This document shows positions 1,491 to 49,497 of a DNA stretch of 64,000 nucleotides, one piece after another. Location: the NCBI GenBank assembly GCA_030704615.1, contig CM060731.1, forward strand, positions 5,952,001 to 6,016,000, read 5' to 3'. The position numbers and the translations under genes were made by a program. The notes beneath the pieces were generated by a model. That model was not told the DNA's origin. It made no database searches and saw only the letters and a list, made by a program, of their open reading frames with translations. This DNA is from Takakia lepidozioides (Eukaryota; Plantae; Bryophyta). Numbering within the stretch: position 1 is the first letter of the stretch; every line of letters starts with the position of its first letter.

Positions 1491-1999
1491 GAGAAGGTGC
1501 CACGACATCACGGGAAGAAATTGTGCTAAAACCACCGCCGTCCTAAAACCACCGACCTTGGTATTTCGGCGCCAAAATTCCCAAGGGCAGTGTGCTAAAG
1601 TGGTGTTTTGAAGACATCCACCGGGGTATTTCGGTGTCGAAATTTCCTTTTGACGAAATACCCAAGTGGAATGTGCTGAAGTGCCTTGTGCTGAAGGCTT
1701 CCATCGTGATATTTTGGTGCAGTAATTCTTTCGTGGAATTTTATAAGGCCCATATTATGAAGGCGCACATTGGGCTATTTCGGCGCCGAAATTCCCAATA
1801 GGAATGTTAGAAACGGCAGGGTTTTCATGGCTTCAAGTTCGCGGTTCGCTGGTGTGCATAAATTACTTGTAGGGTTATTTACTTAAGTTTGAGTCTATTC
1901 TGCTTTTATTATTACATTGTGGTTAGCGAAAGAAATGTAGGGAATCGGACATGCAGTCTGAACACAATGATTTTTGAAATCGTTAATATTTTCATTAAG

Positions 2000-3924: not shown

Positions 3925-4551
3925 AGGCAGGGGATTTTCATGGCGGTTGGGTTTCATGATGTGCGGATATTTCATTCAATGCCGGCTGCTCCGGGAACAA
4001 CATCCGGTGAACGGAACGGTATTTCGGTGCCGCAATTCGGATAAAGCGTTTTGTACTGGTGGCTTGAACAGGCACGCGTCGTGTTCCAATCGACTTCATC
4101 CGTGCGAACGTGTCAGGGGTCGCAATCTCTTCATCACCTATACGGCAGAAAGTGGTGGACGGTGGCAACGCTTCGGGAGACGTGGCTGCTTACGCATCTG
4201 CTCGTGCACAGTGGTTGCATGTTCCACCGCTTCGCTCTCTCGCTCCTTGCCCTTCTGCAGTGACATTCTCTTGCGTTTCCTCTCCTTATGCAGCATAGTG
4301 ATAGCATAGAGTTTGTGGAAGGTCAGGCGACTCCGGCAAAGAGAAGGAGGACGCGGGATTTTGGGAAGCCGCCGACGACACGACTTAAGCTCCGTCTCAT
4401 GCAAGAAATGCAGACCTCGTTATCCGGAGACTGAGATCGCCCACCAGTGAGAGATTCGTGCTTCGCGGACGTGAAGCACTCCATACGCACTATTGCTTTT
4501 ACACCTTTTTTTTTTTGCGTGCAGTGTGTCATGTTTTCCTGTTTGTTTGAC

Positions 4552-7340
4552 ATGGGAGCTGGGGAGGGATTGCAGGGGGGCGAGGCAACACAGTCAACTT
4601 TGGATACTCTTGCCCGGGTGCTGCGCTCGCAAGGTGGAAGTGCATCAAGGCAGGCGACTCCTCATTTAATACCTCAGATATCTCCTCAGAAAAGCCCACC
4701 TAGAGTCCGGAAGCCGAGGAAGCAGAAGGAGCCCATGGCTTCGCCAGTAAAACCACTAGGGAGACTGGAAGCGGAGATATTGGGTTTGCAGGCAGTTTCA
4801 CAAAACACGGATGCGGTGGAGGCCGCTGGAGATGTCGGACTCGGATCTGCAAAAGGGCGGCCCATTGAGCTGACAGAAGCAGAGGACGACAACGTGGTGC
4901 GACTTGACAACGATCAGAACCTGCTGGAGCTTGCGGAGGAGCAAAACCTCCAGGACAGTAGACAGGCTGGTGAGAGGGGTGAGGGAAGTGAGAGAGGTGA
5001 TAGAAGTAAGAAATTGATGGCGGGTATGCTCATGAGCGCACGAGACATGAACATAGCAGCAAACAGGTTGCTGGCAGAGACTCATAGCAACATAGGCCGC
5101 GTTTTGGGCTCCATGGTGTATCCGGAGAACCTCAAAGTTCCTTTGTGTCGCATGGTTAGCCTTCCAGTTGTAAGGCAAGCACTGCCAGGGGACATCGATC
5201 GACTGAAGCACAACTTCAGAGAGGGGTACAGACGGGGGTCGGCAACATTCTACGTTTCCATTGAGAATGACCAGGGTGTCACAAGGGGCCCCACTGCAAG
5301 GGAGCTTCAGAATTGGAGTCCCCACTGGCACACTGTAAATGCCGAGTTTGAAGCCTCTCTGAAGACTAATCCCACATTCGTACACATGGAAGGGAAGATG
5401 TTCTTCGTTTGGGACGGGAACCACGGGATGCTTGCCTGGACAGAGTACATTGCTGAAATGCATCCGCAAGATATCAATTGGCATTACATGGTGGACTGCA
5501 TTGTCGTGAAGGTGGACATGAGGGACAGAGGACTGCTGAAGGTGCCATGGCGGATATAAATCTGTAAGTATACAACTACATCCTTGTGTACTGCCTATTG
5601 CGGCGCCAAAATAGACAATGTTCTTGACTGTCATGCACTCTATGAACTGGAAATTGGATTGCTGTGCCGAAATCTGGTTATTTTTGTATCATATTTTCAT
5701 GTTGTTCATTTTTTTTTCCCTCCATGGCAGGGTAACAGAGAGGGCCTTCGTGGAAACTCATCTGGCACATACGCTCTACAGAGTGCAAGAAGTGGGAACA
5801 GCACCGCTGATGGACTTCCAAAAATCCCTCGATCCCGAGCTGTACAGGAAGTCCCTTGCGAAAACGGATCGCACCTGGTACCGACCAACACTGGACGCCA
5901 TGGTGGAGATCCTCTATTCGGTGAGGTTCATCTCAAATTTCCCGATTTAATGCTATTTGTTGCAGGGATCAGTGGCCTGACTGTATCCGCTGGGTATGGG
6001 AATGCAGACGAACATCAGGGATGATTTGGCCTATGCCAAAAGGCAGTTCTTTGAGAATGATGCCCCCAACAAGGCGGACGCGTCGTAGAGAGTCACATTG
6101 TGCAGGCAGGGAGGCAATCACGGACCAAGTACAGGTCCAAACTTGTTAAGCAAGTTGCAATCATTGACCCTGGTCTTGGTGCCGAGTTCCTGGCGGAGAT
6201 AGGACTGCATTACTCCAGACCCATGAAACCGGAAATGTCCATGGAGAAACTTCATCACATCGCAGTGTCCTGTGTTGAGCCGGCGGAGAAGGTAAGCATG
6301 TGTTTGTTCTTGTTTTGTGTCTTCTCGCGATTCTCATGATGAAGTTCTTATGTCTGACCGATGTTAGGCCATGCAGACGAGGTGGCTGCGAATCTGGAAC
6401 GGCCATACAAACACGAAGCTGTTGTACCACTTTCCCATCAAGCCAAGAGACGACAAAATAAACGACTGGCTCAATGTGATGACTTGGTGGCATCAGGTAT
6501 AATTTCCTCCTCTTCTGTGTGTTGGACATCATCGCAATTTCAAATTCATGAATGTTTTGGAAACCTGCACTGCTGCAGGTACTGACCCACGCCCAGGAGC
6601 AATTGGATTGCAACACCACCACTTGCAAGTTACAGATCGACTAGACGAAGCTTGAGACAATGGAGAACTACGTGCAGTCATGGCGAGGGCGCTTCGCAAA
6701 CCTCTTTTTCAGAGAAATTGCAAAGGCAAGACGCAGCGTATACATCGAAGAGCAGTGAGGGTGTGCCACAAAGCGGCAAAGCGTGTCCTGTTCAGGTAAT
6801 CTGCTGCCAATGCGTCCCCCTATTTGCAGTTATGATGATTTAGCTAAGCAGCGGTGGGTATTGCGGCGCCAAAATATACCTCTGCAAGATGTGAGTGCTG
6901 GGTAATTGGGGCACGGTCCACTATGTATTTCGGTGCCAAAATACCTTGTGCATTGAGAACTTCCTCTTGCATGATGCATCAGTAAAATGATTTTTGTTGA
7001 ACTGCCTCGTGATTGCAGGTACATAAACTTTGCACTCATTCCGTCCGGAGCCATTCAAAGGGTTCCACCATTCTTCCTGGCGTGGAGGACACCTGGAGGT
7101 CGTGGTACGATGTACACAGAAGTAATGGCGAAGGAGTGGCATGCCGTGCATTTGGTAGACTGTCCCTGGTATGTGGATCTCCCAAGTGGGACCGTTGACC
7201 TCTCGGAGGTTAACTTGAAGAAGGAAGCGAATGCCAGGGCTATGAAGGCGCAATCGGATCCCCAACCAGAGGACGCGGAAAGACTGAAAGCAGAGGAGGC
7301 AGCCAAGCAGAAATCACTGAGAAAGTCAACAGTCAGGTCG
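4552..7340 (+). pseudogene. Multi-exon ParB/Sulfiredoxin-fold domain gene, copy 1
   Basis: VPLCRMVSLPVVR...FFVWDGNHGMLAW (DGNHR in copy 3). Several GT-AG introns. Exon-by-exon similarity to 34194-36680 (e.g. IIDPGLGAEFL vs IVDPGLGPEFL). Frameshifts and stops present. Confidence 0.7.
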
Positions 7341-7359
7341 GTACGTTTCATCAGCGCAC

Positions 7360-8620
7360 GGATGAATTTCGGCGCCGAAATTCATCCTATGCAAGTGCTT
7401 TCATACACAAACTTATGAATTTCGACGCCGCACTTCATCGTTTCCCCAGTCCTCATCCGTCATGAGCAGACCTGTCAGTCGGATATCGGAGCCGGAATTA
7501 ATTCCGGGACAGTGGAGACGGCTGCACTTGGGCACATTTCATCCATATTCGGCGCCGAAATTCATCCAGCGCGAAGACTAATCGGCACTATGCTACGCTT
7601 TGCCGCCATCATTGCCCCTCACGGTTGTTGTCCATGCCTGTTGGACTTGTCATGTCTGGACAGTTAACTATAATTTCGGGGCGGGAATTATACTTTATGT
7701 GCTCCGTGCGAAAAATGACCACAATGGATACTGTCAGTTTCAAATGAAAACAACGGCTAAAATGCAAGTAATTTTCCCCCAACATGAAAAAATATCCCCG
7801 TTCGTCATTGGATAACGGCCTTTGTAAGACATAAGGGTTGAATGTGCCGACTTCTCCATTTAATGCAGAAAATATTCGTTATCTTCGTCGGAATGGGTTA
7901 TTTCAAACGAATTTGGAACATCACATCATCCAGAAGCAAAAGAAGTAAGTGTCGGGTTCGGACGAATTTCAGCGCCGAAATTCATCCGTCGCATAGAAAT
8001 ATAATATTAGATTACCATTGTAGAAAAATTTTATATTTTATATTCGATAATAGAATTCATATATTCATTAAGAATATATTTTGGAGGGTAATATATTAGT
8101 AATATATATAAATTATAGCAATTATACTTTAGAATATATATTAGAAATATTTATGAATATAGGAAAATTTATAATAGAAATATTTTTATTATATATATAT
8201 ATATATGCAGTAGACCAGGGAATATCGCATTTAGATATAAGATGAAGATAATGCATTTAATGCCGATATTCATTTATATATTATGTCATTCGGATGTCGA
8301 CACCGAAATCTGGAACGTGGTGATCATGACTGTAATCACGAACACATTCATCCGTAATTCGGCGCCGAAATTTTATGTGCAGAAACAATTTCATGAAGAA
8401 CATGTTCATCCGAATTTCGGCACCGAAATCCATCCGTCGGGTGCTTGCTCAGTTTCATGAGATGAACAAATTACGATTTCTTTCGCCGGAATTCATCCCC
8501 TGGCTTCCAAATCTGTTACATTACAGAGATGTTCATCCAGATTTCGGTGCCGAAATTCATGAGAAGGCCTGATTTATTGTAGCCCAACTGGTGGTACATC
8601 ACAATTCAGGCACCAAATAT
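7360..8620. repeat. Dispersed array of the palindrome GAATTTCGGCGCCGAAATTC around an AT-rich core with (AT)n
   Basis: Perfect 28-bp palindrome GGATGAATTTCGGCGCCGAAATTCATCC at 7360-7387. Degenerate copies at ~7418, 7483, 7547, 7672, 7966, 8290, 8357, 8413, 8480, 8541, 8604. Confidence 0.9.
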
Positions 8621-13648: not shown

Positions 13649-13884
13649 GGCCTCACGACACAGCAAGAACTCAGAGCAGGGAGGAGATGGGCACAACAAA
13701 GAAGAGTGAAGAGCAAAATGAGAGCGAGGCCGACGGAAGAGGGATATATCATTGCTGCACTGCCAATGTCGTATGCGGCAGAACTTCTATTTCCTCCGAC
13801 ATGTGTGCTTTTATTAGACAAATCCGCACCAGTTTCAAGAGAGTTTGCAAAACTCCCTCACCCTAAGGCGGGTATTTGCTCTCC

Positions 13885-14230
13885 AGAGCCCAATTTCGGC
13901 GCCGTTATTGGATGGACTGCAGAAGCTTCAGCCGAGAATTTTGTTTCCGGAGCCCAATTTCGGCGCCGTTATTGGTTGCACTCCCCAGCCTTCAGCCGGG
14001 TATTTGGTTTCCGGACCCCAATTTCGGCGCCGTTATCGGCTGCACTCTGGTGGCTTCAGCCGAGTATTTGGTTTCCGGGGCCCAATTTCGGCGTCGTTAT
14101 TGGCTGCACTCCGGAGGCTTCAGCCGGGTATTTGGTTGGCGAGCCCAATTTCGACACCGTTATTGGCTTCACTACCGAGCCTTCAGCTGGCTATTTCTTT
14201 TTACGGCGCCGTTATACCCAACCATCCTGC
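13885..14230. repeat. Subterminal tandem repeat, 64-bp unit x ~5, each with AATTTCGGCGCCG
   Basis: CCCAATTTCG recurs at 13889, 13953, 14017, 14081, 14144. Confidence 0.9.
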
Positions 14231-17367: not shown

Positions 17368-17390
17368 ACCATGCCAGATTACTTGCTATC

Positions 17391-24291: not shown

Positions 24292-24721
24292 GGGGGCTGC
24301 TATTTCATGAGCGGCACGAGCATGAGCGGACCATTGTGTGTCCACGGAAATAGGGTTAGGAGGCACGGAAATAGGGTCATGTGAAGTTGGAATGTGGCAC
24401 CAGTGGACTCGTCATAGCAATGAAATGCAACATTTTATTGCAAATTTTGTGGCAAGCCACATCTATACAAGTGTGTCCTAACTGTCATAGCCGGAATGGG
24501 CACTACTCTCTTACACCCTCCAAGGAACTTGCCCCACCTTCCTCCTCATCCCCCTCATCCCCCCATCCTCCGAGCTCTGTGATGCATCAGTTCCACTATG
24601 CCTCTCAAAAATTCCGTCCTCTCCTTGGGGGACTGTCCACCTCACCTCCTGGGAATCTTCTGCCTCTTCTCCCCCACTTTCCTCAGCAGAATCCAAGACA
24701 AATCTACGAGCCTGACGGGCT

Positions 24722-26852
24722 CTAATAGCTGCTGCCTTCTCCCTCATCTTCATTTTCTTGAGGCTTGCCTCGTCTAAAATCTGCTGTATACGACTAGGTT
24801 CAGAAGACCTCCTAATGGACACCGAAGCAAGCCGGGCAACATAAGTAGGAAGGATGTAGTCCCTTTCTGGACTCGACTTAAAATCCCCCCTGGCAAAAAA
24901 AGGCATGTTCCTCCTGCCCATGAACTGCGGTGTAGACGTCCCTCCTGCAGTAATTGGCATCTTGCAGTAAGAACAAATGCACTTTAAGAATGTCAATACC
25001 AGTAGAGCCAAAAGGGTCTTTCAATGAAATAAGAGAGCAAAGGGAGGTGCCTCACAAAATCAAGAGGCAACTTACAATGCGACCACTCACTCATAAACCG
25101 GGGGCTCATTGGCCTCAATCCCAACTTGTACCTCCCCCACCTCCTTCTCGAATTCTTCCTCATCCTCCGAGGATGCCTCTTCCTCTTTCGGCAGACGTAC
25201 AGCCACTGCAAGTTCAGAGTTGTGGAGGGCAGTATCTGGCTCGAAGGCGAAGACATGCCTGTCGGACAATGTCCCTGTCCACATTGAAGCACCTGAGGGA
25301 CAAAGCGGGTGGTTAGTAGCATGCGGCATGCAATTGCAATCGGGCCAAGGGACAAAATGTGCACGTGAAGGCTTACATGTGCCGCATGTGAGGTCAAGAA
25401 TCCGCCCTTGGACATCCAAGCACGTCTCCATCAGGGTTTGGATGAAAGCAGGGCTCCGGGTCCGGCTGTACCGCCACGGTTTGCCTGTCTTTGTGTCCTT
25501 CGGCATACTGGATTGGGGCACATAGTTGTAGAGGACATCGTAGGTAAATGGGTCCACAGCGGCATCAACAAGACGACCGTCATTGCGGAATTTGAACGTA
25601 GACCCTCTCTTCACAAAACAATATGCCTCAAACACCAATGTCTGCACATCCAACAAAAGAGGGATCCACTCCAGGGTCTAGTTTAGATACACCACAATAT
25701 GAAGTGAATGCAATAGATTGATAACTTACACTCTAGCCCTCTGTTTGCAACCCCTGCGAATTGATGCAGAACCATTTTTTCAGGAGGACTGGGGTGACAC
25801 TTTTTGGTGTCTACCTTGCCACAACATTCTCTGTGGTCTTCCCTCTTGTGGCAAGGACCACCATACATCCACCGTCATCCAGGAGCATCCCCGCCAGCCC
25901 AAACCCGGCTCTCCAGTAGTCCTCCGTAAACCTGTTCCAGGTTGGCACACCATCCAGGCCCTCCAGTAGCTCCCCATCTGGAATATTGAGGAGAATCATA
26001 TCGCAGACTCTCTCCACCTCGACCCCCCCCCCCCCGAGTGCTCTTGCAATCCGTGCTCACAGCCGTGAAGAATTCCATCATGGCTTCCAAACCAGGGGTG
26101 TCTTTAGGCTCTGTAGCAGCAGCCCTCTTCTTGGCTTTCCCCTTCAGCTCGACTTGCTGTGTGCCACCTTCTTCACCCTGGCAGCCAGAGCGTCAAGAAA
26201 GCTCTCATTGACGCATTGGATGATAGTTGGGGATTCTAGCTTTGGCCTTTGCGGAAACGTCACCGCCGAATACCATCGTGTAGGCTCGCCCTCAAATGCC
26301 AACTTCTTGGCAGAGCCAGTCCCAGTCTGAACTGACTTGGGAACCCGGACGACCGGTGACTTGGTAGCAGCAGCAGCAGTCGCAGGACCTTGCACAAAGT
26401 CGTCGTTGGAGTCACTCCTTGGGGCCCCTCCTGCGCCTCCTCTGGTGCCCCGGTGGTTTTCTATTTTTTGGGGGTTACTTTACTCCCCTGTTTCCGTGTC
26501 CTTTTCATTTGTCCTTTATTCTTCTCATTCAATTTCTCCTGAATACCTGCCTGAGCAAGCTCTGCCGCTTTCCTGGACTTGGCAAGCGCTTTCGCCTCCT
26601 TTGGACCCAGCGGAGGCAGCGGAGCCCGGTTTTGTCAGGCCTCCGCATCCAGCTTCAATTGGAACTCGGATGAGTCGAGCGAGCCGGGCGGAAGGTCCAC
26701 ATACCAAGGGCAGTCGCGCAAATGCTCCAGATGCCACTCCTTCATGATAACGTCAGTGTACATGGAGTTAGCTCCAGGGTTCCTCCATGCGAGGAAGAAT
26801 GGCGGCTGGAAGGACAGATGACCTTTCTCCAACAGGGAGAACTTACAATACC
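24722..26852 (-). pseudogene. Beta-class amino-methyltransferase-like gene copy 2, preceded by the last exon of the ParB-like gene
   Basis: PPFFLAWRNPG...CPWYVDLP (homologous to 7019-7336), then SPTIIQCVNESFL, DMILLNIPDG, MLLDDGGCMVV, RTRSPAFIQTLMETCLDVQGRILDLTCGT, RHVFAFEPD. Stops and frameshifts. Confidence 0.65.
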
Positions 26853-27939
26853 TGCATTCAAAAAACACAAACAGAATCACATCCATTTTTCCAGTACAGG
26901 GTCCGAAAATGGCTAAGTCCCAGAACTGACCGGGCCCGGAACTGGAAAAATGGCGCCGAATTTCCAGACTGTGCCAGCCACCCCCGGGGCTTAGCCATCC
27001 GCCCCATGGCCGGAAACAAGAAATTCGGCGCCATTTTTCTAGGGGCTTCACAACTAATTTTCATGCGCCACATAAGGCAACTTACATCCTGGAAATGTAG
27101 GGACTACAATGGCCACGGATCTAAGAAAGGCAATGCGTATGTACCTGTACAGAAGGCGCGTTGCCGCTTTGTCGCCGTTCGGCTGGTCGACATTGCCGCA
27201 TTGCCGCCCGTAGTACAAAGGCTTCAATTTGCAACGCGGTCTGGATGTGGGGTTTCTCTCAAGAGAGCCACGCCCTTCTCCACGCGGCATAAGTCCGAGT
27301 AAAAGAAAAAATCTCCCGCAGAATGCATGCGTACATGCCTCGAATGGAACTTCATCCACCCGTCACATCAGGTGTCGAAGGCGTATCCGGGAAGCAAGCG
27401 CGGTATCCATGTGGAACGTCCGGTTCAAAACAGACGGCAGAGGACATTTAATGCGCAACTGCGCCCTTAAATGTAGGTATGGAAGTCGCCCACAGGCGCC
27501 ACCTGGCCCACCCTCCCCCCGAGACTTCATCAACAGCCCGCTGGATGGAAAAAAACTGCGCCGAATTTCCATTCAGCGGATGAAGTGGGACACACCGTGG
27601 CCCTCCCTCCGCCCGAGACGTTCTCATCCAGAAGCAGCTGGATGGAAAACCGGCGCCGAATTTCCATCTGGCAAGTAAACCGGAGCGTTGCAGGATGGAA
27701 AACCGGCGCCAAATTTCCATCTTGCAAGTAAACCGGAGCGCTGTAGGATGGAAAACGGCGCCGAATTTCCATCCTGCAAGTAAGTCGGTCCACCTCATGG
27801 ATGGAAATCCGGCACCAAATTTGTCTCTACCGGACGACATTGGTGGGCATAACGTGCCAAAAAGTGGACCGCAGGCGAAAAACTCTAAGTTGAGTGACTG
27901 ATTAGACAAAAAAACGCGAGGGTCGATACGGGCGTCTAT

Positions 27940-29065
27940 TGATGGATATTCGGCGCCGTTTTTCCATCCTGCAGATGATCTCTTTCGGCCACTCCCCCTG
28001 AGATTTCTCCATCCGTGTGGCCTTGGATAGAAATACGGCGCCGTTTTTCCATCCGAGGGATGTTCTCTGTCGTCTAGATGTCGGCCTCTCCCCCCGAGAC
28101 GACTTCATCCGACAGGCCTCGTCTAGAAATTCGGCGCCGTTTTTCCATCCGGGGGATGTTCTCTGTCGGCCAAGTGTCGGCCTCTCCCCCCGAGACGACT
28201 TCATCCGACGGGCCTCGTATGGAAATTCGGCGCCATTTTTCCATCCGTGGGATGTTCTCTGTCGGCTAGGTGTCGGCCTCTCCCCCCGAGACAACTTCAT
28301 CCGAACGGCCTCGGATGGAAATTCGGCGCCGTTTTTCCATCCGAGGGATGTTCTTTGTCGGCCAGGTGTCGGCCTCTCTCCCTGAGACGACTTCATCCGA
28401 CGGGCCTCGTATGGAAATTCGGCGCCGTTTTTCCATCCGAGGGATGTTCTTTGTCGGCCAGGTGTCGGCTTCTCCCCCTGAGATGACTTCATCGGACGGG
28501 CCTCGTATGGAAATTCGGCACCGTTTAGCCATCCGGGGGATATTCTCTGTAGGCCAGGTGTCGGCCTCTCCCCCCGAGACAACTTCATCCGAATGGCCTC
28601 ATTGGAGATTCGGCGCCGTTTTTCCATCCGAGGGATGTTCTCTGTCGGCCAGGTGTCGGCCTCTCCCCTCGAGACGACTTCATCCGACGGGCCTCGAATG
28701 GAAATTCGGCGCCGTTGTTCCATCCGGGGGATATTCTCTGTCGGCCAGGTGTCCGCCTCTCCCCCCGAGACGACTTCATCCGAACGGCCTCGGATGGAAA
28801 TTCGGCGCCGTTTTTCCATCCGATGGATATTCTCTGTCGGCCAGGTGTTCTCTGTCGGCCAGGTGTCGGCCTCTCCCCCCGAGACAACTTCATCCGAACG
28901 GCCTCGGATGGAAATTTGGCGGCGTTTTTCCATCCGAGGGATGTTCTCTGTCGACCAGGTGTCGGCCTCTCCCCCCGAGACGACTTCATCCGACGGGCCT
29001 CATATGGAAATTCGGCGTCATTTTTCCATCCGTGGGATGTTCTCTATCGGCCAGGTGTCGTCACC
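27940..29065. repeat. 96-bp tandem repeat x ~11-12, each with the near-palindrome GGATGGAAATTCGGCGCCGTTTTTCCATCC
   Basis: TCGGCGCC core at 28131, 28227, 28323, 28419, 28515, 28610, 28706, 28802, 28916, 29012. Confidence 0.95.
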
Positions 29066-30172: not shown

Positions 30173-33100
30173 CTACCCATGTGTTGTATCCTGCTGCAAA
30201 AGAGTATCGAACTCGTTGAAACTCATAGTGGCCTGGTGAATGAAGTTGTCACGTTTGGGATCGCAAACCATCCTCCTCAAAAATATGAAATACAAATGTT
30301 TGCAGGGTATGAATTTACCTCTCTTGCCCAAACTGATTGATAGCATATTCACAAAATCAGGACATGTGCAATTGGGGAAATTGGAAACCGTGATGTCGTA
30401 GGTCCTGTCATGAACAGCAGATGTGGAAGTGATGATTGTGAATACCTGACCATATCCTGGATCGTGTACTTCCGTGGTGCTTCCGACACGAGCTTGGAGC
30501 ATTCTTGCGGACTCCACTTTGCCAAAGTGTTCAGCGGTTGGAGGGAAACGCCGAACGAGCTTTCCATCTCGTTTGGTTGGCCACAAGTTAGGATTTGCCG
30601 GGGGGACCCGGGAGGACGCAGAAGTAGTAGCACATGCATGGAGTTGGGGTTGTCTCGCAAGGGAAAAACCTGCCTCCTCCAGCATTTCAATCTCCTGAAA
30701 GCTGAGATGTGTTCCCACCTTCACGGGCCAAACGGTTGGAGGAGATGGCTTCATCACTACGGAAGGACGCACAGTTCCATGCACACATCTGGCACAATCA
30801 TCTGCGCAGAACCAGAACTTGTGGTTCTTGGCTTCTGGTTGACCGTATGGACGCATCAAGCCCGTGAAAGTCGGAGTAGGAGTTCGGGCACCACCTCTGG
30901 ATATAGATGAAGTGCACTTCTCGAAATTAGTTGCCCTGATCGCTGTACATTTCACACGAGACCCGACACTTGTGCGTTCTATGTGCCAAACGTGGTCGGG
31001 GCATGCGGACTCAAGCACATCAAGGGGGTTGTTTCTCTCCTGCACCATTTCAGTGGCACGGTTTGATGCTGGAGCTTGCCGTCGTGTTGGAGGTTCCTCC
31101 ACAATGGAGGTTCCGGACATGGAGCTGTCATGCAGGGGAACACGAGGCTTCGAGAAGTTATCACGGTCTGCCCTGTGGGAATCTGAATCCAAACCAGGTG
31201 GAGTGTTCAATTTCCTCTTACAGGAGCCGAATCTCTCCTCCCCTTCAAGATGTGGAACTCTAGAAACAAGTGGCGTTCCCTGGGCATACATGCTCACCGC
31301 CCGTGCTATCTTGATTGGATCCCCAGATCTGTTTGCAGCACGCAACATCAACTCCCATTTGTCCGGACCCTTGCCGCCAACCCCACCTCGTAAGAAATCA
31401 CGGTATCGGGTTTGTTGTTGCAAGGCACGTATCAAATCATCTGTTGTTGCCACATACAAATCCCGACCTCGTTTCCCAGACTGCTGCAACCATGCATTGT
31501 GCACAGTTTTTGCCAAATTGCAAGATGGCATGTCCGCCATTTCCTCAATGGACATGTTCTGCAAAGAGGATAACCACACTTCAGAATAGTGCACAGGAAA
31601 CAACATAAAGAAAGCAATGAGTCAAAAATATGGAAAGCAAATGTATGAATAAAGCATGAAATAGAAGCCTCGTACCATTGTCATGGCTGCTCCCCACTGT
31701 CTATACCGGAAGTGCCAAAACGCCAGCCAATCTTCCAATGCTCACATACTCTCAAGTGATGCAGCTCCAGAAGAGAACCACCAGGCACGAATTGTCTGGA
31801 ACAAAGTGTCCGCCTCCTTCATTGTTCTAGCATCATTGTACTCTTTGCACAATTTACGGTGTTGAGTCTGCATCTCTGGTTTGATGTCCGACTTTGTATG
31901 TTTTTCCAGAGATTGTGTCCAATGGAATAGACATGTACGCTCTCTTCCTGGCATAGGCTGAAAAGAAAAACTTTGATGGCACCTTGACCTGGGAATACAT
32001 TGTCCTGGATGTAATCGTACTTGCTCACTCGTTTCAATTCCAAAATATTGTCTATGTAGCCTTTGATCCAAGAGCCCATTCTCAATGCATTGATCTGATG
32101 CCGAATGTTAGGTGAATTTAAAGTGGAGAAATGATCCATGACCAGGTCCAATGCTGCACCGTCAAGTTTAGTCCCCACAGAATCTCCTTCACTCAAAATA
32201 TGGCTTTCCAAGAAGGACTTGCTTGCGCCAAGAGCAATTGCAGATGTTGTTGCGGATGGGTTTCTCCCGAACTCCTGTTTGATCAACCTCGATACTGTCT
32301 CAACACTCTCCCTGTAATCCCCCTTCGAGACAGGATGGTTATGGAATCCAAAATGCACACAAGCTCTTGTCATTGTATTCAAACGGTGGACAACATAGTA
32401 CATTCTTGCTCCGCAGAGCGCCAAGCAGGATGGCACAAGTTTGCAGAATTTGCAAACGAAAGTGTTTGCCGGTGGAGGGGCAGTCCCAGGCTGAAATGGA
32501 TTTTCCGCCAGACCCTCCCATTCGCTTTGATTATGAACCCCAGACTGAAGAAAGTGTCTGCAATTCAAATTATCACACCTAAGGTGTCCATTGCAAACTG
32601 TCCTCCTGAAAACAAGCTTGTCATCATTCTGAATATTGGATGTTTTTGTTCTGCACCACGGGTGCCCGTCGTGTTTCTTGTCCATTCCATGCATCATGAT
32701 TGTTACACCTCCAACTCGCGGAGGAGGAGGCAGCTCGAATAGGATATCGCCATCAAAAGTCTCCGGCAAGAACTTCACAGGCACCTGCTTCAAAGATTCC
32801 CAATCAATTCCCCGCAACTCACTTTTGAATCCAGCCATTCCTCCCATCGCCCGCAATTTTGGAATGACACTACAAATCTCTTCTTCATCAGCTTCTGCAA
32901 CCACAGTAGGAAGGACTGGTTTTGGAATTTCACTTATGTCATCATCGGAAGAATCCGAAAGCTCAACGATTGGAGTGGAGGAAGTCTGTTCTTTTTTCAC
33001 CACCACCTCCCTCTTGTCTTCAACGACCGAAGCAGCACTCCCGGGCGTCACATATGACCCAAGGGACTTTCGCCGAGGCTCTCCAAGTACTCTGTATCGA

Positions 33101-33339
33101 CCAGGACGCACTCTCCACTGACTGATATGAGCCGTCTCATCACGGTTTTGGAAAGAATATTTCACCAACTTCCCTTTCAGATCGTAAACCTCTTTCTCCA
33201 AAAAGATGGACCCATTCTGCAGCTGAAAACGGGTAGCCAAGACATGTTCCAGAACAATTGCAAATCCATTGTCAAGGACTTCCTGGGAGAACGGCACTGG
33301 TTTGTCGTCTGAGAAGAACTCCGCTTCAGAGGAAGCCAT
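30173..33339 (-). pseudogene. GCM-DDE-SWIM Mutator-like transposase, copy 3 (central DDE part deleted)
   Basis: KKHDGHPW, CNGHLRC, CKFC, CVHFGFHNHP; ERTCLFHW; CNLAKTVHNAW; CTCPDF...PCKHLY. The segment with the first two catalytic Asp is missing near 31960. Confidence 0.8.
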
Positions 33340-34193
33340 CTTCCTTCCTCGAGTATGTTTGTACCTTGCTATCGCAGATCTAGTGTAAATCGGTTTACTG
33401 CTGTCTCCAGAACACAGTTGAAGAATGAGCAGAGAATATGGCGGAGGAAGCTCAGATAACGACTGTGCATATTCTGTTATTCATTCCAGATATGCAGCCG
33501 TCCATTTTAATTACTTTTCTTGTGGGCCCAGTGGTCAGAGTATCCCTAGGGGCAGTGTCGGCAACTGTTAAACCGTTAATCAGAACCTCATCAATAAACC
33601 CAATAACAAAGCCGACTTCCTGGAAGCATGCCACAGGATCTGAGAATGGGATTGCAAATTAAGTAAATGTATCTATATACTACTACCAATGATCATGCGC
33701 ACTTGGAAAGTTCCAAATGTGAAACGAATGTGGGGTTTGGCTAACAAGGATGACCGTGTATGATATTCCAAAATTTGTCATCAAACTCTCGTTCATTTAT
33801 ATTTATTTGTTTAAGACTGCGCATCAATTTCTGGGATTCGCTGTTCTTTTTAAATATTGAACCCGTTATAATAAAGAACACGCCGTTTTTTTTGGGCGGC
33901 ACACGTCAGACATCCATAACTGAATACGAACAGTTGTACACCAATTGCTGGCATGTGCACTAATAAGGAAACGACTATGTGTAACGGTCACGCGGGAGGG
34001 AATTCGATGCTTCTAGAGACACGCAAGAACGCAGGCAATCCCGCAAGGAATCGGGAGTCACTGCGTTTTTCTACTTTTCGCGCTTAGAGGGAGAGTGGTA
34101 GTCAAGCTGGAGAGGGTTCCTTCTAGAATACGAAAGAGAAGAAAGTCTCTTTATTTTACTTCACTTAGAGAGAGACGCAGAGCAAGAGAGAAA

Positions 34194-36680
34194 ATGACGA
34201 GGCGTCGTTTGTTGGAGAACACAGGGCCAGGCAGCAGGTGAACGCGGAGACTGATTCACAAGAGCAGACGGAGACTGAGGCAGCGGCTGCGACACAGTCG
34301 GCGATAAGAGTGCGCCAGCCTGTGGAGGCAGAGATGATTCGCAGGGACACTGAAGAAGGTGGAAGCACACGGAACGCCGAACCTGGAGAAGGTCAAGAAA
34401 CCCTTGCGCAGACAGAAACTCCAGCAGATGTGAGAGGGAAGAGGAAAGCTGCAGAAGGGGATCAAATTTCAAAACCTAAGAAGGTGCCAGTAAGTTTTAT
34501 CATATAGTCTGTCTGATTGCCTTTCAAGGAGTCCTTCATCTTCCATTCTTTAGCAGGAACTACTGAATCGCGAGCGTCGTTAACGCCATTCGATTCTCCT
34601 CATGAGATTTATGTACCTATGTGTTTGAAGAGAGAGTCTGCACTTACTATTCTCCCTAAACTACACTGAATGTCGTTGCCGCCAATAAGTTGCACATGTA
34701 TGTCATTACACAACACCGATCCGGCAGGTCGTTATGTTTTGTGATTGTCGTTAACGCCGTTCGCTATCGCTCTCGCTTTTGTTTTGAATACGGTAGTCTC
34801 GGCTTTGCATGTGTAGATTGTGCTGAATTCTTTCACACCATTCATGGTGAGTTTCCTTGATACAGAGTGATGGTCGTTACCGCCATTCACTATTTGCAAA
34901 TCACTCAGTCAGAACTGAATGGCATCGTGCAGAAAACTGTGAGGTCGAAGCCTACAGGATCAGAGGGGAAAGGATCTGGAGATGGGGACGAGTCCGCAAA
35001 AAAGCTCAGAGAATACAGATGAAGCAGATGAATCCGAAGTGCACTACCTTGACAAGGTGAAAGAACTCATGTCATTCCAGAAGGTAAACTCTCAGGAGGT
35101 TATAAGGGACATGCTCGTATCTGGAGGGCGTCTGGACATACCTCTGTGCCGGATGATATCAATGCCTGTTGTGCGTCCACCTCTTTCCCATGACATAACA
35201 AAATTGGAGAGTGATTTTGTGCATGGATATAGACTTGGTGCACAAGTTTTTATGTGTCACTGACGGATATAAATGGGAAAAGCACATTAGTGTCTCCAGA
35301 GATCAGTGATAACTGGGATGAGTGCTGGAAAGATGCCAATGAGGAGTTCGAGCTGGGCCTCATGATGGGAAAGAACACCCAGCAATTCTGCAACCACATG
35401 TTCTACGTCTGGGACGGCAACCACCGATTGCTGGCATGGATGGGATACATTCAGAAACACCATTCGAAAGACAAAGACAAGCATGTTGTTGTGGAGGCAA
35501 TGGTTTTGGATCCAGGAAACGACATCGCTAGGCTTCTTACAGCTATGCACGACGTGAACAAGTAAGTCATCCAGGAGATTTCATTCCCTCTGTAGTGTCT
35601 TGTTAATCCTCAAAAAACAGTGTTAAGGAATGCAATGTTTCCAATGTTTTGCAGATCGACAGAGAAATCGCATGTGACAACAAGCTTGGTTCACACACTA
35701 TTCCGAATTCAGAGGATTGGTCTGATGAAGCTGGATGATTTTCGGACAGTACTACCACCCAATATCATCAAGAAGTGCGAAACAAGAAGAGCTGCAGGCA
35801 CTTGGTATTCTTTGACACGAGAGGCATTTCTGGAGTACATGTATGCGGTAAGCCCGAGTCTGTAATCTGTTTACTTTTTGAATACATGTTTGTAGTCCCT
35901 TCGGAGCTAATCACTACTTGAATGAATGCAGCAAGAACTGGCAGAGGCGGCTGAGAAGGGGAAATCCGAATATTACCGCACTACACCAGAAGAACTAAGG
36001 ACATCAAAGGGTGTGGAAGCTGCAATAAAGAAGGAGTTTGAAATGCGAAGAACCAAATTGATGTCAGCCTTCGGAAAGCAGCTTAGAATAGTAGATCCTG
36101 GACTTGGTCCTGAGTTCCTTCAGCAGATCAAAACACACTATGACAAGCATGTGCATCCGGAGATGCAGCAGGAGAAATTGCACCGGCTGGCCATATCGAT
36201 GGTCGACCCACAAACAAAAATAAGGTGGCTGGAGATATGGAACTCAGATCAAACAGTAAAGGACTTGAATCAGTTCCCAAAGAGCACCATACAGCCTGAC
36301 ACAAAGGTGGAAGGAATCAGTGATTTGGTCTTTGATAACTGGCTCCACAAGGCTACATTTTGGAGTCAGGTGTGTATTCGAACATGTTGTTTCTTCTCTT
36401 CAAGTATGTGATGTGTATCTTTTTGCAATTCTGACAAATATACTATTTGCAGCTCGAAAAGCGCGCCGTCATTGTGCTGGATCAGACTTTGAAGGACCTG
36501 AACATTGCGATTGTTTCCCCTCCCCAAATGTCATTGGAGGCATACATAAGGAAGTGGAGAGGTCTCACGTGGAGATACTGTTTTTTCCGGGAGTTCTCCA
36601 AAGATGGTAAAATTTTACGGTCCAACGACTTTGACAGTCAGGTTGGAGGAGAGTGGGCCATGATGCGAGTTGTGTACAGG
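34194..36680 (+). pseudogene. Multi-exon ParB/Srx-fold gene, copy 3, truncated by the LTR insertion at 36965
   Basis: IPLCRMISMPVVR, FYVWDGNHRLLAW, LLTAMHDVN, IVDPGLGPEFL. Intron positions match copy 1. Frameshift ~35250. Confidence 0.75.
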
Positions 36681-36964
36681 TGCAATGTCATACTTGAAAC
36701 TCTACTGTTTTTTTGGGAAAAAATGTGGCTTCATATGGATTGCAATCTTAGATCCAGATTGAATGTCGTTGACGACATTCACTTCTTTGTCTAAGTCATT
36801 CTTAAGCGAGTATATGAATTCACCTGGTTAGGATCTAAGGATGCAATTATATTGTCCCTGATTAGAATTGATAATGTCCTTGAATGGCGTTGACGACATT
36901 CACATACGGAGTTGTTGAGAGGTCCTCAGAGTTATTTAAATTTTTGTAATGTCCATAGAGGTTA

Positions 36965-37585
36965 TGTCGCGCGGCTTTTACTCACCCATCCCTTCGCTAT
37001 CCGAGGCGGAAACTCCAAGATAGAAGAGTTGGAAATCTCTAAGTACTCAGCCCGCGCAGAACAATCAGTCATGACCTACAGCTAGTGTATCATGGGGGTG
37101 TTTCCTATTTGTTTCCTTTTCCGCATTCATCTTAGCTACCTTACCATTGATAATTAAGTATCAGTTTGCTTCATCAATTTATCGGTTTCCTTAACTCCTC
37201 CATTCAATCCACAGCTTCACTCAGATCTCTCTACACAGTGTGATTGTATCGTATAAGTATCAGATTATGATTTATCAGGTATCAGGCCGAAGCCATTGTG
37301 TCTCTATTCTCCTCTACAATATCCCTACAGCTTTGCATATAACAAGCATCTACTAATCCTCTTTCCTCCTTCATCGTGCTCACCGACTTCCGCTCCCCCT
37401 GACTCCGAATAATAATAATAATCATCATCCCCTTCATCATTCCCCGTTCTTCCCTTTATCCTCCTATCCGCGGTTCTAACCGTTTCCCTCTCTAACCGTC
37501 GTATGTGAATTAACATGTTCCCTTCACAGGTGTTGTTCCCCACAGTCGTTCCCTGTCCTACTCTTCGTTCCCTATTATCGTGACA
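36965..37585. mobile_element. LTR-like segment (TGTC...GACA)
   Basis: Inverted TGTC/GACA termini and abrupt interruption of the ParB-gene intron. No TSD found. Confidence 0.4.
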
Positions 37586-41326: not shown

Positions 41327-43799
41327 CAATGTTAAGGCATGTAAAACCGCGGAATACTCTATACAGGCCAGTATGCGACGTCCTTTTGCAGTGGTATACT
41401 GGATTTCCCGTTGCACGGTCACTTATTTCCATGAGCGGATCTATAAAACCATGAGCGGACTTGTTACTGACGACATATCTTCGCCGCATTACATGATCTG
41501 GAACGTCCAAAAACGGCAAGGTCAAATAAAAAACTATTATTTTAATACTTGTTTAATCTGCCGCATTTCCAAATTTGGAGGAGTCCGCTCATGAAATCCG
41601 CGTATCTTAGACTTCGGCTCACCGCTCATGCGGCTCATGCGGCTCATGGCTCATGGCTCATGGTTTCTGCTCATGAAATAGTAAACCTCCTTACACGCTC
41701 AAGCTGCGTCCCTGGAGTTCTCACATGGCACTGTCTCAACTCAGCAACGCATGTATGAACATGGTAGAGAGAAATATAAGCCAGAACACACAGCTCCATG
41801 CCATGTGGCCCCCCGTCTGCTCAACTGGTCGAATATGGCTCATCACGGCACTACTACAGACCGACATCTTTGCCCCACTCACGGATCATGCATTTGCTTG
41901 ACGTTCCCCAGCTCGAGGCTTTGCACAAATCACCCACTGTTTGTAGGCACGCCAACGCTGAAGAAGCTTCCATTTGGACTCTACCAAGGCCATACTGCTT
42001 GTCGAAGTTGCCTTATGTAGTAGCTGATTGTCTGCAAAACACAGGATGTCCACAAGTGCGCCAACGGCATCACACTCTCCGAGTGTATGTCAAGCTAACT
42101 ACAAGTCTGATCACGGGCCTGTCCCCCAAGCGTCACGCCCTGATGCTTTCCTCTCTGCACGGTACTTTATTATTGTGCAAATGCTCGAACTGCTCAGCAT
42201 TTTTAACACGGTTCCAGCCTCCGAGCTACCTCTCGCCGTTCTCCAGCTCTCAGCTTACTTATATGTGCAATTTGGACGCTGTTCCCAGCCATGCCCGCCC
42301 TATGCTTCGCAAGCAGTTATTAGAGAAAGACTTCACACGGTTTTCGCTGCAGCCCCCCCTCTCTTCTCATAATGGGGACTGCCTTCAGCATGTGTACTCC
42401 ACGATCACTATGCTCCACAATCCACCTCGAGGTCCAAAGCCTCGGGCAAAACAAAACAAGTCATACCCAAGAAAAGAAGTTTACTGTCAACAACTACGAA
42501 CTGATTTGTATGCACAACTGCAGCTCCTTCTTTGTATATACAGAGCCTACGAGGCTGCCCAAGCCTCCATCTCGCCTCTTATTTGGCATCATGTGTGCCT
42601 CCCGTGCACAACATCGTACCGGACTACAAACGAAACGAGCAACAATGACTTCTATCAAAACCACTCATTACGAGTTGTGCTTTCCCTACTTCAAATATCA
42701 TCGACATAGTGCTAACATAAAAGAAATCTATCTAGCTTAGCACTACCAAAACTAGACAGGTCACCTCTCTCGAGTGATAAGAGAACTAAAATCACAACGT
42801 TGAGACAAGAACATGAAATACAACACCATCACTCGTTAAACTAAGAGTCGAGCCAGGGGCACCCCAAGCTATGGGGACTCCACCCCACAACATCATATTC
42901 TCCCTTCATAAGCACACTCCGATTCTAAGCAGTGAAGGAGCTCGGTTGTGCAGGCTCAACTCGAGAGAGATGAGCCGCACGACTGACACTCTCCTGAAGA
43001 TAAGATGGTTCAGGTGTCAAGCTAAACTTGACACCTGACTTAACACTTGAACTAAATCCAAGTGTTAAATACAAATAACTAGCTTTATTCTAGTTAGTTT
43101 CACACTGTGTTTATTTAACTTGACAAAACATCTCACCCCATGGGACTTCTCGCCCAAGTCAGGGGATATTTTCATATACCTGCAGGATTGGATAGACCAC
43201 TCTCAGCAAAGGAGGGTGCACCTGTCCGCTCTTGAGTACCTTCCTGGTCTCCATGATCAGCCTCGCCGGGACGGGCCTGCGCGGCTTTGGTGCCTGCGAA
43301 TCGTTGATCTGCAGTTTCCGCCAACATGGAACATCCCCAAAAGCCGCACGGCCTTCCTACATCATTGGAGGTGTTGCCAGTGGGCCTACGAGGATTGCAT
43401 CGGGTGTACGTACATGCCAGAGAGGATTCCATCGCAAACAGTGTATGGGGACATTCTCATAAGCTACGAGGATGAGTCTTATGGACATAGAGTCTCCACA
43501 GCAAAGATCTCGATTTACGATGGTGCATATATCGGAGGAGATGACACCGTTGTCCACTACACCAAAGGTGAACGGGCTACATCCATTGTCTTCACCTACC
43601 GACACCCTGTCAGTCATGAACTTGTTGAGAGGCCAATTGAGGTTCCAGCTTCTTGGTGAGAACAATGCAACACGGGAGCAAATTTCCAAACGGAGCATGG
43701 ATTGCATGCATACTTTTGGCTTCCCTTGGTTTGTGAGGGCATGCATACTTGTCACAGTTCATTATTAATAAAAATGTCTCCTTTGAACCAAAGTTCCAC

Positions 43800-44299: not shown

Positions 44300-46360
44300 T
44301 GCACTGGTCATACACCTTCTGACTGCATACCGTTGGCAGTTATTGCGCAAAGGCCAGGGGGCGCATTCCTGGACTACAACAAGTTTGCAATTAAATCCGT
44401 TACATGCCTTCCCGCAGACGTCGACGGTAATATCTTCTTTGAGTTCCCTCCTCAAACGGACTATTCGAGGGCGTCCGGAATGTTGATAGATATGGATAGG
44501 AAATATGACGGTCATCCTTGGTGCGTCACCAAAACCACCAGCATGAAGATGCTCAATGGTGTGCGGGTGCGCTACGTTGTTTGTGCGGGCGCGTTGCGGT
44601 GTTTCTCCCCAACTTGCTTCCACTTTAAATCCAGAGGTCACAGGAACAAGACGGATTGGACAGACACAGCTCATCAACCATTTCGAGCTCAGGAGAAGGT
44701 TCCAAACTCCACATTTAAGTGTGCACATTGCAAAGAACAACCACATTGCATGTCTGTTTATAATGCCAAGCAGTTCTATGTGTTGCACTGTTTCCCTGAC
44801 CTCACACGAGCTTGCATACACGTTGGTTTCCATTGTCACAAATTGGCGAGGGGTAACTCGCGGGAGGCTGCCCACGAGGCAGAGCAGCTCGTTCAGGAGG
44901 AGGTTAAGTTGAGACCTGGTGCCAAACCCAAACAGATACAGCTGCAGGTCGCCCATAAGATGACATTGGCCAAAATTATGTCGGAAGACGGCTCCGACAG
45001 AGTTCCTCTCGATGAGAAGGAAATGGAGGCATTGCTGGAGTCAGTGTTCCACGTCTGTTCACCGAATGTCCGAAACCACATTGTCTCCTGCAAACAGAGA
45101 ATTGGGCGTGGCTCGGATATGCACTTCATTCTGGAGGTGAAGCGACGATGTGGATATGACTACATTCATGGAAGTAGATTTCTAGGAAAGGGACTGAGGC
45201 AGATCGCTGTTTCGTATTCAAAATATCAACGTGTGGGCCTGGCAGCGGCGTCGAACTGGTCCACCGGATGACGAGTGAGGACTTGTCAAACAGTTGGGTC
45301 ATGTTCGACCATATCAAGCGAATTACAAATCACCAGTGGGTGACAATGGGTGCACATGTCTACGACACCCACTGGAGGATGCTAATGACAATTGTTATTT
45401 ATGAGATGAAATGAGAGGACACACAATCGGAGATGCTTCTTTGGCAGGGAATAAACGAACAGATGGCCAGGGAAGGATCTCCCCCCTTCCGTGGTTTCAT
45501 GGCGGACAACGCACAAGCAAATTGGGCTGCCATCCGAAGGGTGTACGGGGAAGACCCCAATGTTCCGATGAAAAGCAAGGAGAGATCTTGTGGGTTCCAT
45601 TTTCTGCAGAGCTTGTCGTAGTACACAACCAGGCTCGTGGCGCCAGATTTCAGAGAGAAGCACCGTTCCATGTGTCTTGCGTGGAAGCGTGCTCCCACCT
45701 TGGATGATGCAGAGACACAGTTTGCATGTATACAGGCTTGGTGAAATCAGACGAGGGAGCAATGGTCAGTTGGCTAGCATGGTGGCATTATCGTTTCCTC
45801 CAGTTCGGCGACTATATGCGGGAGGTGAGTTGGACGAATTTGGGTCCCGTTGAATATTATGCTAGCTACTCATTATTTGTAATTTGCTTGTAACCTGAAC
45901 ATGTGCATGTGCAGGAAATGTGTCTCGACTCCGACACCGACATGCCGACAACAAACATGGCCGAATCAGTACATTCTTCCTGGCGTGCCTCCTCTACGGC
46001 GCATCTGGTGGACATCCTCACTGCCACAACGGAGGACATTGTGAGGTCAATTATGCAGCAATGCAGGTACAACGAGTTCTTGAAAGGGAAACATTGGGGC
46101 TTGGGGTCGGACAGGCAGGAAATGCTGATGCGGACTGCCTCCAGATCGAAGAATCCTCGCAAGTGGGCGGCAGCCTTGCGAGAGGGCCTTCGGGACACGC
46201 CATTGCTTCGAAGTGGCCAACACTTGGAAAGAGATGGTCACACCCGTCCGGTGAGACGAAGACTTGACGAGGCATTTGACGGAGAAGAGGATTCATGGCG
46301 AACTGACAAGAATATTCGCACGCTCCCTCGTGGTCCCGTGATGTTGCCCGAGGAGGTCTC
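44300..46360 (+). pseudogene. GCM-DDE Mutator-like transposase, copy 2 (5' and 3' truncated)
   Basis: RKYDGHPW, CAGALRC, WVMFDH, GFMADN, SCGFH, TTNMAESVH. Close to copy 1. Frameshift and stops; SWIM missing. Confidence 0.85.
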
Positions 46361-46875
46361 GTCGAGCACCGCAAGTCCGATGTCTGAAAAAATGGCGCCG
46401 AATCTCCAGTTACATGGCCCAAGGACTGCCCAACATCTGTGCAATCCCCAGCACCATGTACCGAAATTCGGCGCCACATTTCCAAATTTTGGGCTTACAC
46501 ACTTGCCATGTTGGGACCTATAGCTGCAAAATTCGGCACCATTTTTCGCCGGAGACACCTATTACCGCGAAATACGTTGCAGATTTCTCCGGTTGTGGAA
46601 CCTATTACCGCGAAATTCGGCGCCATTTTTGCAGATGTCGCTCGGAATCCGCATGAGCGGAAGATGAAATATCATGAGCACAGCTCTCAAAACTACAATT
46701 TTTCCTTCAAACAATGAATATTATATTGGTTTTTTTTTGTTTTTTTTCCTGACACATTCCATTAAAAATAATGTTTTTAATGTTTTTTATTTCCAAATTT
46801 TGTACTTCTGCTCATGAAAACCGATTGTCTTGCTACTCCGCTCATGCCGCTCATGCTCATGAAATAGCTAACCTC

Positions 46876-49126: not shown

Positions 49127-49481
49127 TGTCAAGTTAAATAAGCACAGTGTGAAAACAGCTAGAATAAAACTAGTTATTTGTATTTAACACTTGGATTTAG
49201 GTCAAGTGTTAAATCAGGTGTCAAGTTTAGTTTTGACACCTGGTCTGTCTTATCTTCACGAGAGCGGCAGTCGCGCAGCTCATCTCTCTCGAGTTGAGCC
49301 TGCGCGACCGAGCTCCTGCATTCTTCAGATCTGAGTGTATGATGGGAGTGTAGGTTGTTGTGGGGTGGAGTCCCCATAGCTTGGGGTGCCCCTGGCTCGA
49401 CTATTATCTTAAAGAGTGATCTTGAGGGATTGCATATTTCTTGTGTTGAGAGTGCGTGTCCTTTTTCAAGTTTGTTTATCA
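49127..49481 (+). repeat. Terminal repeat A1 (355 bp)
   Basis: Appears identical to 60660-61014. Confidence 0.95.
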
Positions 49482-49497
49482 CTCGAGAGAGATGAGC
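49481..49497 (+). promoter_or_regulatory. Putative self-priming primer-binding site
   Basis: ACTCGAGAGAGATGAGC is the exact reverse complement of 49278-49294. No TGG-starting tRNA PBS present. Confidence 0.7.

Follow-up and report, generated by a model that had tools for sequence, protein, structure and literature searches.

Clade-specific palindromes around the ParB-like gene of Mutator-like transposons in Takakia lepidozioides and their relatives: predicted protein-binding sites

Transposons with ParB-like accessory genes have been described from algae. In the brown alga Ectocarpus, the element Sola1-1_Ec32 encodes, on the strand opposite to its transposase, an accessory protein of 1104 amino acids (aa) with ParB-like and N4/N6 methyltransferase domains, which was proposed to bind and modify its own element (PMC12477816), and Plavaka elements of Bostrychia carry tandem arrays of inverted repeats beside the gene of the ParB-domain protein PAG3, proposed as binding sites, with homologues in Mutator elements of Chondrus (bioRxiv 10.1101/2025.02.11.637652). 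Here, we analyse a stretch of 64,000 nucleotides of Takakia lepidozioides (assembly GCA_030704615.1, contig CM060731.1, positions 5,952,001 to 6,016,000; hereafter the window), which holds four copies of elements of this kind, and concentrate on six palindromes within the ParB-like gene of copy 3. Going by the available parts of these reports, ParB accessory genes with inverted repeats close by have already been published from algal transposons, and the system in the window is a Mutator-like plant variant of them.

By its domain description it resembles Sola1-1_Ec32, likewise a DNA transposon with a ParB and methyltransferase gene opposite the transposase, but Sola1-1_Ec32 has a Sola-1 transposase and resides in a brown alga, whereas the transposase here is Mutator-like and the hosts are plants; 'palindrom' occurs 0 times in the available main text of that report (PMC12477816). 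The PAG3 system, also likened by description, shares a ParB-like accessory protein and inverted-repeat arrays next to its gene. Its ParB domain is, however, fused to a 2-oxoglutarate (2OG) oxygenase, the N6 methylase of the PAG2/PAG3 system being separate and accompanied by a SET domain, and the available description gives no motif sequence, fixed spacing or clade-specific arms (bioRxiv 10.1101/2025.02.11.637652). In the VANDAL/VANC system of Arabidopsis, too, an accessory protein is paired with family-specific short motifs in non-coding tandem repeats that differ between families; VANC removes silent marks and its binding was shown by experiment, according to the part of the report consulted (PMC10398659), whereas here, as judged by description, a long palindrome goes with ParB and methyltransferase folds. 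The bacterial ParB-parS, Noc-NBS and KorB systems combine the ParB N-terminal fold, a GxxRxxA-type motif and palindromic sites as well, and ParB and Noc read different palindromes through few residues, a few changed bases defining paralogue specificity; parS and NBS, as described there, are 16 bp long without a 4-bp loose centre, in contrast to the 20-22 bp of the sites here (PMC7383237). ParB fusions with a helix-turn-helix are described, in the part of that source seen, from chlorophytes and chytrids (PMC4738411), and the accessible text of a preprint on N4-methylcytosine (4mC) in Marchantia contains 'ParB' 0 times (10.1101/2021.02.12.428880). Our literature search, mostly without subscription papers, returned no land-plant description of such a ParB-methyltransferase transposon system.

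The six palindromic 20-mers in copy 3 are real and not a product of chance. Their starts, listed in the initial annotation of the window, are all exact: site 1 lies at 34572..34591 (GAGCGTCG-TTAA-CGCCATTC), in the first inferred intron and with no sibling-copy variant listed inside it, site 2 at 34668..34687 (GAATGTCG-TTGC-CGCCAATA), site 3 at 34743..34762 (GATTGTCG-TTAA-CGCCGTTC), site 4 at 34869..34888 (GATGGTCG-TTAC-CGCCATTC), site 5, downstream of a splice donor at 36680, at 36761..36780 (GAATGTCG-TTGA-CGACATTC) and site 6 at 36882..36901 (GAATGGCG-TTGA-CGACATTC). Allowing up to three mismatches, the pattern GAATKTCG-N4-CGAMATTC matches the window 20 times (13 in copy 1, six in copy 3 and one stray), against 0.63 in shuffled sequence. 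When a symmetric profile is trained on five of the sites, the sixth ranks first among all window positions in 6/6 trials, the held-out sites scoring 22.6-32.9 and no other position scoring as high with these leave-one-out profiles; the best non-training hits of the full copy-3 profile are the copy-1 sites at 7364, 8412, 7417 and 7964. On either side, the six sites have 30-nt flanks that show no relationship to one another (mean identity 0.30, best pair 0.43), so the sites are not parts of one longer repeat, and an origin from an unrelated nested repeat, raised beforehand as an objection to a function, is not borne out.

The pattern itself, proposed in the initial annotation as a consensus for copies 1 and 3, holds only in part, as one of the six sites fits it exactly and another with one mismatch while the other four carry three; tGAATGKCG-TTRM-CGMCATTCa describes the copy-3 sites better. 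Copy 3 does lack GGCGCC, as had been noted (0 in 29900-37100, against 12, 15 and 4 in the other three element regions), but it does not share the arms of copy 1: half-site position 5 is T in 27/28 copy-1 and G in 12/12 copy-3 half-sites (Fisher p 2e-9), with no difference between the two copies at C7 and G8.

Sibling copies of the copy-3 subfamily keep the sites, and the suspicion that other members might lack the motif is not confirmed. Variants were read over 34480-34930 (451 bases, comprising four of the six sites and 80 motif bases) in four runs from three samples, one of which is possibly the source of the window itself. Variants occur at 21 places, of which three set the window apart from nearly all other copies and 18 segregate; none of the 18 falls inside the four motif sites (80 of 451 bases; P 0.02-0.03). 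One of the three near-fixed differences concerns the final base of site 2: here the window departs from all siblings, which have the palindromic C. Further sites, with GTAC and GTGC centres, appear at loose ends of other copies, so that the TTRM centre is not fixed in the subfamily. In two runs, sibling contigs extend over all 30 bins; one contig skips 36793-36880.

All six sites lie inside the ParB-like gene, with none in the transposase gene or in the 33480-34194 spacer between the two. The Mutator-like transposase gene (30173..33480, minus strand) is divergent from the ParB-like gene and is without 349 nt at 31958 that are present in a sibling contig. On the plus strand, the ParB-like gene begins with an inferred exon 1 (34194..34489) that encodes a low-complexity N-terminus and has a frameshift near 34228, followed by the exon with the ParB/Noc-fold domain (34909..35561), which bears a GNHRLLAW motif and frameshifts near 34998 and 35246, all three frameshifts being absent from sibling contigs. 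Three further inferred exons within 35656..36679 (~35656-35848, 35933-36369 and 36454-36679) encode a helical middle region, of which the first is the candidate DNA-binding part. Downstream of the donor at 36680 the expected next exon is absent, since an unrelated high-copy repeat (36964..37136), marked by a jump in depth and loose ends at 36964, starts there and cuts off the gene; in copy 3, whose ParB-like gene is cut at ~36964, a methyltransferase part is not seen. Placing the sites in introns, as had been done, is upheld insofar as the introns are deduced from GT/AG ends, from stops in three frames over 34491-34908 and from homologous exon ends in relatives; two sequencing runs guessed to be RNA yielded no clean splice joints for this gene. 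A possible mini-exon around site 1 contains an in-frame stop in the required phase. Copy 1 also has sites in the intron matching that of site 5 (6925, by consensus pattern), and the related metagenome locus L059 has one site just after the exon that precedes site 5 in copy 3.

Related loci in metagenome assemblies show which part of the palindrome is conserved. A scan confirmed 127 relatives, of which the best 80 were kept and reduced to 54 non-redundant groups (308 kb). Arms conserved across the family could be rejected, as the window's own motif profiles are nearly empty in the 80 loci: the copy-3 profile has seven hits, six of them in L003, against 1.0 in shuffled sequence, and the copy-1 profile three against 1.8. 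A de novo search for repeated near-palindromes instead returned new words in the same CG-N4-CG frame. Counting CG-Nn-CG palindromes (n = 0 to 10, at least 5/6 arm bases paired) gave 34 CG-N4-CG sites in 15/54 loci, against 0.4 expected, and 0-5 sites for each of the other ten spacers. With CG decay allowed, families of at least three sites were found in 19/54 loci, against 0.3 in resampled sequence; as this family finder seeds on CG/TG/CA-N4 cores, core conservation in its set is partly built in, and the de novo search and the spacer count are the less biased tests of the frame. In the 18 loci used for position and pairing statistics (L047 was dropped as near shuffle level), 0/128 sites fall within coding matches, against 28.6 expected, and in 16/18 no site is farther than 2.8 kb from the ParB exon, the exceptions being L062 and one site of L067. 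The array of L062, at a distance of ~9 kb from the ParB exon, is possibly part of another element. The conserved part is thus the CG-N4-CG frame, with arms that diverge by clade and a loose centre. Conserved half-sites around a different centre, the rule initially proposed, do not describe the family: the frame is kept, the arms are clade-specific and the centre varies even within the copy-3 subfamily. That the palindromes are a functional cis element is nevertheless supported, by their retention among siblings, their unrelated flanks and the recurrence of the architecture in independent loci (40-50% protein identity).

In a ParB tree of 54 rows, the half-sites sort by clade (GAGGCCTCG, ACCCTCTCG, CAACTTTCG, CTTCTCTCG, CTACTTTCG, GAGGTGCCG, GTATTGGCG and CCATATGCG). 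Copies 1 and 3, which this tree does not place, add the types GAATTTCG and GAATGKCG. L038 has one site with the TTGA centre of copy 3 but other arms. Three loci (L011:591, L020:716 and L025:468) have a second CG-N4-CG palindrome, CAGGTTGCG-CAAT-CGCAACCCC, in single copy beside the main GAGGCCTCG sites of their clade. The sites of L036:9118-12440, L042:260-1187 and L058:2940-3347 have decayed mainly by CG to TG/CA changes, a decay that suggests that their CGs carried 5-methylcytosine (5mC) in silent copies. Viral contigs contain ~121 stretches with the copy-3 pattern, the 80 listed having a single site each, which is near a rough chance estimate.

The protein encoded beside the sites has a ParB-type fold, which relatives join to a methyltransferase-like domain. 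A search with the main exon of the copy-3 gene gave 757 relatives (E <=0.001) from a set of 50%-identity representatives. The structure model of the best-scoring one, P0004 (predicted local distance difference test, pLDDT, 87.7), retrieves in Foldseek top rows that are all ParB/Noc/PadC/Srx, with E of 6e-3 to 1.5e-2 for Noc, PadC, ParB and KorB, and aligns with KorB over 90 residues (Z 7.9, root-mean-square deviation 2.5; structures compared: 7ng0, 7ol9 and 8qa8). On these moderate scores the exon domain is assigned to the ParB N-terminal fold. It carries a GNHRLxA motif of the GxxRxxA type, the nucleotide-binding motif of the ParB/Srx superfamily; G, N, H and A are at least 90% conserved in 36 rows, and in 11 rows G, N and H are invariant and R, L and A at least 90% conserved. 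The fusion to an N4/N6-methyltransferase-like domain is found in P0062, P0104, proteins of Riccia sorocarpa (37 relatives, the longest ~1100-1240 aa) and copy 2. In this part motif IV precedes motif I, and comparison gave E 0.008 for DpnA, 0.06 for CcrM and 1.4 for rotifer N4CMT. A search with one short peptide pattern each found no protein relative in viral contigs or prokaryotic genomes, and a general domain scan of 18 element open reading frames (ORFs) gave no ParA, no search having been aimed at it. Language-model look-alikes (P0141 and the P0004 entry; queries P0178 and P0004) are fungal DUF3723 proteins and one cnidarian cluster, with DUF3723 (PF12520) the top look-alike both for the ParB-like domain and for domain plus middle region (scores 0.95-0.96); Pfam scans of the ParB-like relatives returned no PF12520. 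DUF3723 may thus be a ParB-fold accessory protein, a lead that comes from language-model likeness without alignment or E-value. It is, in the portion of the report seen, a conserved cargo of the fungal Starship elements with no function assigned, comparable as a mobile-element accessory protein but unlike the present one in that Starships move by a tyrosine recombinase (PMC9156397).

In the transposase, we recognise D, D, CxxH, E and a C-terminal SWIM finger (MFDH, MADS/N, CxxH and CNLAETVH in relatives), a DDE triad with CxxH and SWIM that we take to be the Mutator/MULE transposase pattern. VANDALs are Mutator-like, too. The SWIM match of the window transposase (E 0.0074) is below the cut-off, neither the window ORFs nor any of 8/8 relatives match a Pfam MULE or GCM profile, no PDB sequence match was obtained, and the GCM label of the initial annotation fits by eye only. 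Long terminal inverted repeats were seen in none of 17 long loci, and with no complete element in the window no target duplication (9-11 bp in Mutator/MULE transposons) is readable. Four terminal blocks with GCTCATG repeats (14540-14610, 24293-24330, 41587-41682 and 46810-46875), which end in a common AATAG-containing word, are candidate transposase-binding ends. The third belongs to a longer block at 41330..41682 (plus strand), which resembles those ending at 14610, 24293 (reverse) and 46875 and may be the right end of copy 3, beyond an insertion and a 500-N gap. A ParB-like and methyltransferase gene on the strand opposite to the transposase emerges from the fusion in relatives and copy 2 and the divergent layout of copy 3; in 11 loci with at least 5 kb upstream of the ParB exon, a transposase lies upstream and divergent in six and on the same strand in one, and none was seen in four.

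The palindromes are very probably protein-binding sites. A site that is two-fold symmetric and constant in spacing, with a loose centre and half-sites that vary independently, suggests a protein dimer on double-stranded DNA. The differences in the arms between subfamilies of one genome suggest that the element encodes the binder. On sequence grounds, we consider it reasonably probable that the 20-22-bp palindromes are parS-like, subfamily-specific docking sites of the element's own ParB-fold/methyltransferase-fold protein, which is preferred to the transposase because of the position of the sites, the ParB habit of reading palindromes and the separate GCTCATG end word. A dimer of this protein would use the helical region that follows the ParB fold to read the two arms; a ParB clamp would load at the palindrome and then spread, as the clamps of ParB, Noc and KorB do, carrying the methyltransferase fold over its own element, where it could write 4mC or N6-methyladenine (6mA) or, should the altered catalytic motif be inactive, shield CGs, with the outcome that only its own subfamily would escape host silencing. 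Loading, sliding and marking are extrapolations, based on the domain fusion and on what bacterial ParB does. That site use results in self-marking or anti-silencing is offered tentatively, autorepression of the own gene being the main alternative.

Several observations weigh against the docking of a ParB-methyltransferase protein. Families of at least three sites were not found in 35/54 loci, many of them short and mostly coding; among the 35 are L016, L030, L034, L037 and L041, which span 7-14 kb. Within its many-copy subfamily, copy 3 itself is a broken element, and its sibling variants are listed above a 2% share only, are linked between neighbours and cover four of six sites. The fold scores are middling (Z <8, no E <0.001), no Pfam ParB family matched in the scanned window ORFs or relatives, and the middle region has no clear fold match. 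Unlike in ParB-parS and Noc-NBS, no helix-turn-helix was detected after the ParB fold, structure searches aligning only the N-terminal fold well, and a search by one short peptide pattern found no close prokaryotic relative; helices do follow the ParB fold, and the next exon shows a conserved helix-helix-basic-loop pattern that varies by clade and is helix-turn-helix-like by eye only. In the methyltransferase part, PF01555 matches in 4/16 relatives scanned stay below the cut-off (best E 1.1e-5, 25.9 bits against 26.7). The canonical N4/N6 catalytic motif is (D/N/S)PP(Y/F); the window and its relatives have D-x-P-[D/T/S/F/I]-G, not DPPY. Co-evolution of the sites with their binding protein, as initially suggested, agrees with arms that follow the ParB tree, and distances correlate with those of the ParB protein (Mantel rho 0.39 for the arms, 20 rows), but shared descent alone predicts as much, the centre tracks the protein as well as the arms do (rho 0.45), and the binder is itself deduced.

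The transposase is the foremost other candidate, and it is an unlikely one: its N-terminal zinc-binding domain would bind the palindromes for synapsis or for self-activation as in AtMu1. It stays in consideration because copies 1 and 4 carry subterminal sites, ~250-750 bp from the terminal block, as transposase sites would be and contrary to what we favour, and because the AtMu1 transposase, according to the part of the report seen, binds motifs of its own family and activates it (bioRxiv 10.64898/2026.08.24.746577); transposase and ParB gene also travel together, as the six divergent pairs in 11 loci illustrate. Yet AtMu1 binding, in the same portion of that report, peaks at the terminal repeats (bioRxiv 10.64898/2026.08.24.746577), while the ends here carry the other word, GCTCATG. 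The 6/6 sites of copy 3 lie inside the ParB-like gene, and in L032, L036 and L040 the sites are 0.5-1.5 kb upstream of the ParB exon and at least 2.6 kb from the nearest transposase match, with five more downstream of the exon in L036. Clustering of sites near the 5' end of the gene and in introns, where enhancers lie, would suit a host DNA-binding protein that drives transcription of the element, but a conserved host factor would hold the arms constant, and they differ between clades, with two arm types in one window; we regard this as very improbable.

Two further explanations dispense with a DNA-binding protein. The sites could be neutral relics of ancestral tandem arrays, or of a small nested repeat, dispersed by slippage and conversion: many sites of the relatives sit in 51-140-bp tandem units that can be amplified without selection, and tree-tracking follows from descent. 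The unrelated flanks in copy 3, the avoidance of the sites by segregating variants and the CG-N4-CG frame kept by array units of unrelated sequence and period make this improbable. That the palindromes act as RNA hairpins in the pre-mRNA, as splicing or processing signals, appears far-fetched. A loop of 4 nt would fit, site 5 folds at -11.3 kcal/mol, and pairing over 171 sites slightly exceeds that of shuffled halves (1166 against 1152, P 0.016; P 0.10 with G-U pairs), the seeds having been picked for symmetry; copy 3, however, has no excess pairing (40 against 40.5), the folding energy of site 2 is 0.0, and in copy 2 and L009 the two half-sites differ from each other in every repeat of the site.

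While the algal ParB-methyltransferase reports, in the parts available, propose self-binding and marking but name no target sequence, the loci collected here provide exact candidate sites for about ten clades, each with its own protein. Docking of the ParB-methyltransferase protein at these sites would, if true, add a further sequence-specific route of transposon self-protection beside VANDAL/VANC, assembled from bacterial parts; it could also give rise to non-canonical DNA methylation in seed-free plants. More doubtful is the wider idea that land-plant Mutator-like transposons run a bacterial-style centromere code, in which a subfamily clamp on its own 22-bp site would slide and leave a private 4mC/6mA mark or a 5mC block at the fixed CG pair, and of which fungal DUF3723 may be the same device; such a code would amount to a collection of orthogonal pairs of clamp and site, diversified by nature and coupled to a DNA writer that works in plant chromatin.

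The other copies in the window differ in layout and site type. Copy-1 sites (1560..8559) are of the GAATTTCG-GYGC-CGAAATTC type and surround a ParB-like gene (4327-7340, plus strand) and methyltransferase exons (3999-2083, minus strand), and a 64-bp tandem array near its right end (13872..14187) has a CG-GCGC-CG site in each unit. In copy 2 (24500..29060, minus strand), the last exon of the ParB gene continues into methyltransferase exons, and its 19 GGAAAAACG-GCGC-CGAATTTCC sites lie mostly in 53- and 96-bp arrays. Copy 4 (44369..46875, plus strand) comprises a partial transposase, three to four decayed sites (46388-46632) and a terminal block. The gene order of copy 1, methyltransferase (minus), ParB (plus) and transposase (plus), is that expected if the ParB segment of the usual layout had been inverted, and palindromic sites lie close to the two would-be breakpoints (4019-4038 and 7364-8558); alternatively, copy 1 may consist of two fused remnants.

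Near copies 1 and 4, two ORFs at 13082-13786 (minus strand) and 43069-43656 (plus strand) are related (44% identity over 170 aa, E 1e-48) and are possibly a third accessory gene; for the former, neither Pfam nor PDB sequences gave a match, and it did not turn up in the related loci. Four repeats of 83-100% identity with the look of long terminal repeats lie at 29334-29879, 42718-43128, 49124-49540 and 60484-61100, one of them adjoining the left side of copy 3. The regions 14866-21000 and 52960-60313, labelled by eye, contain long ORFs with a strong strand skew and look like retroelements of the long interspersed nuclear element (LINE) type.

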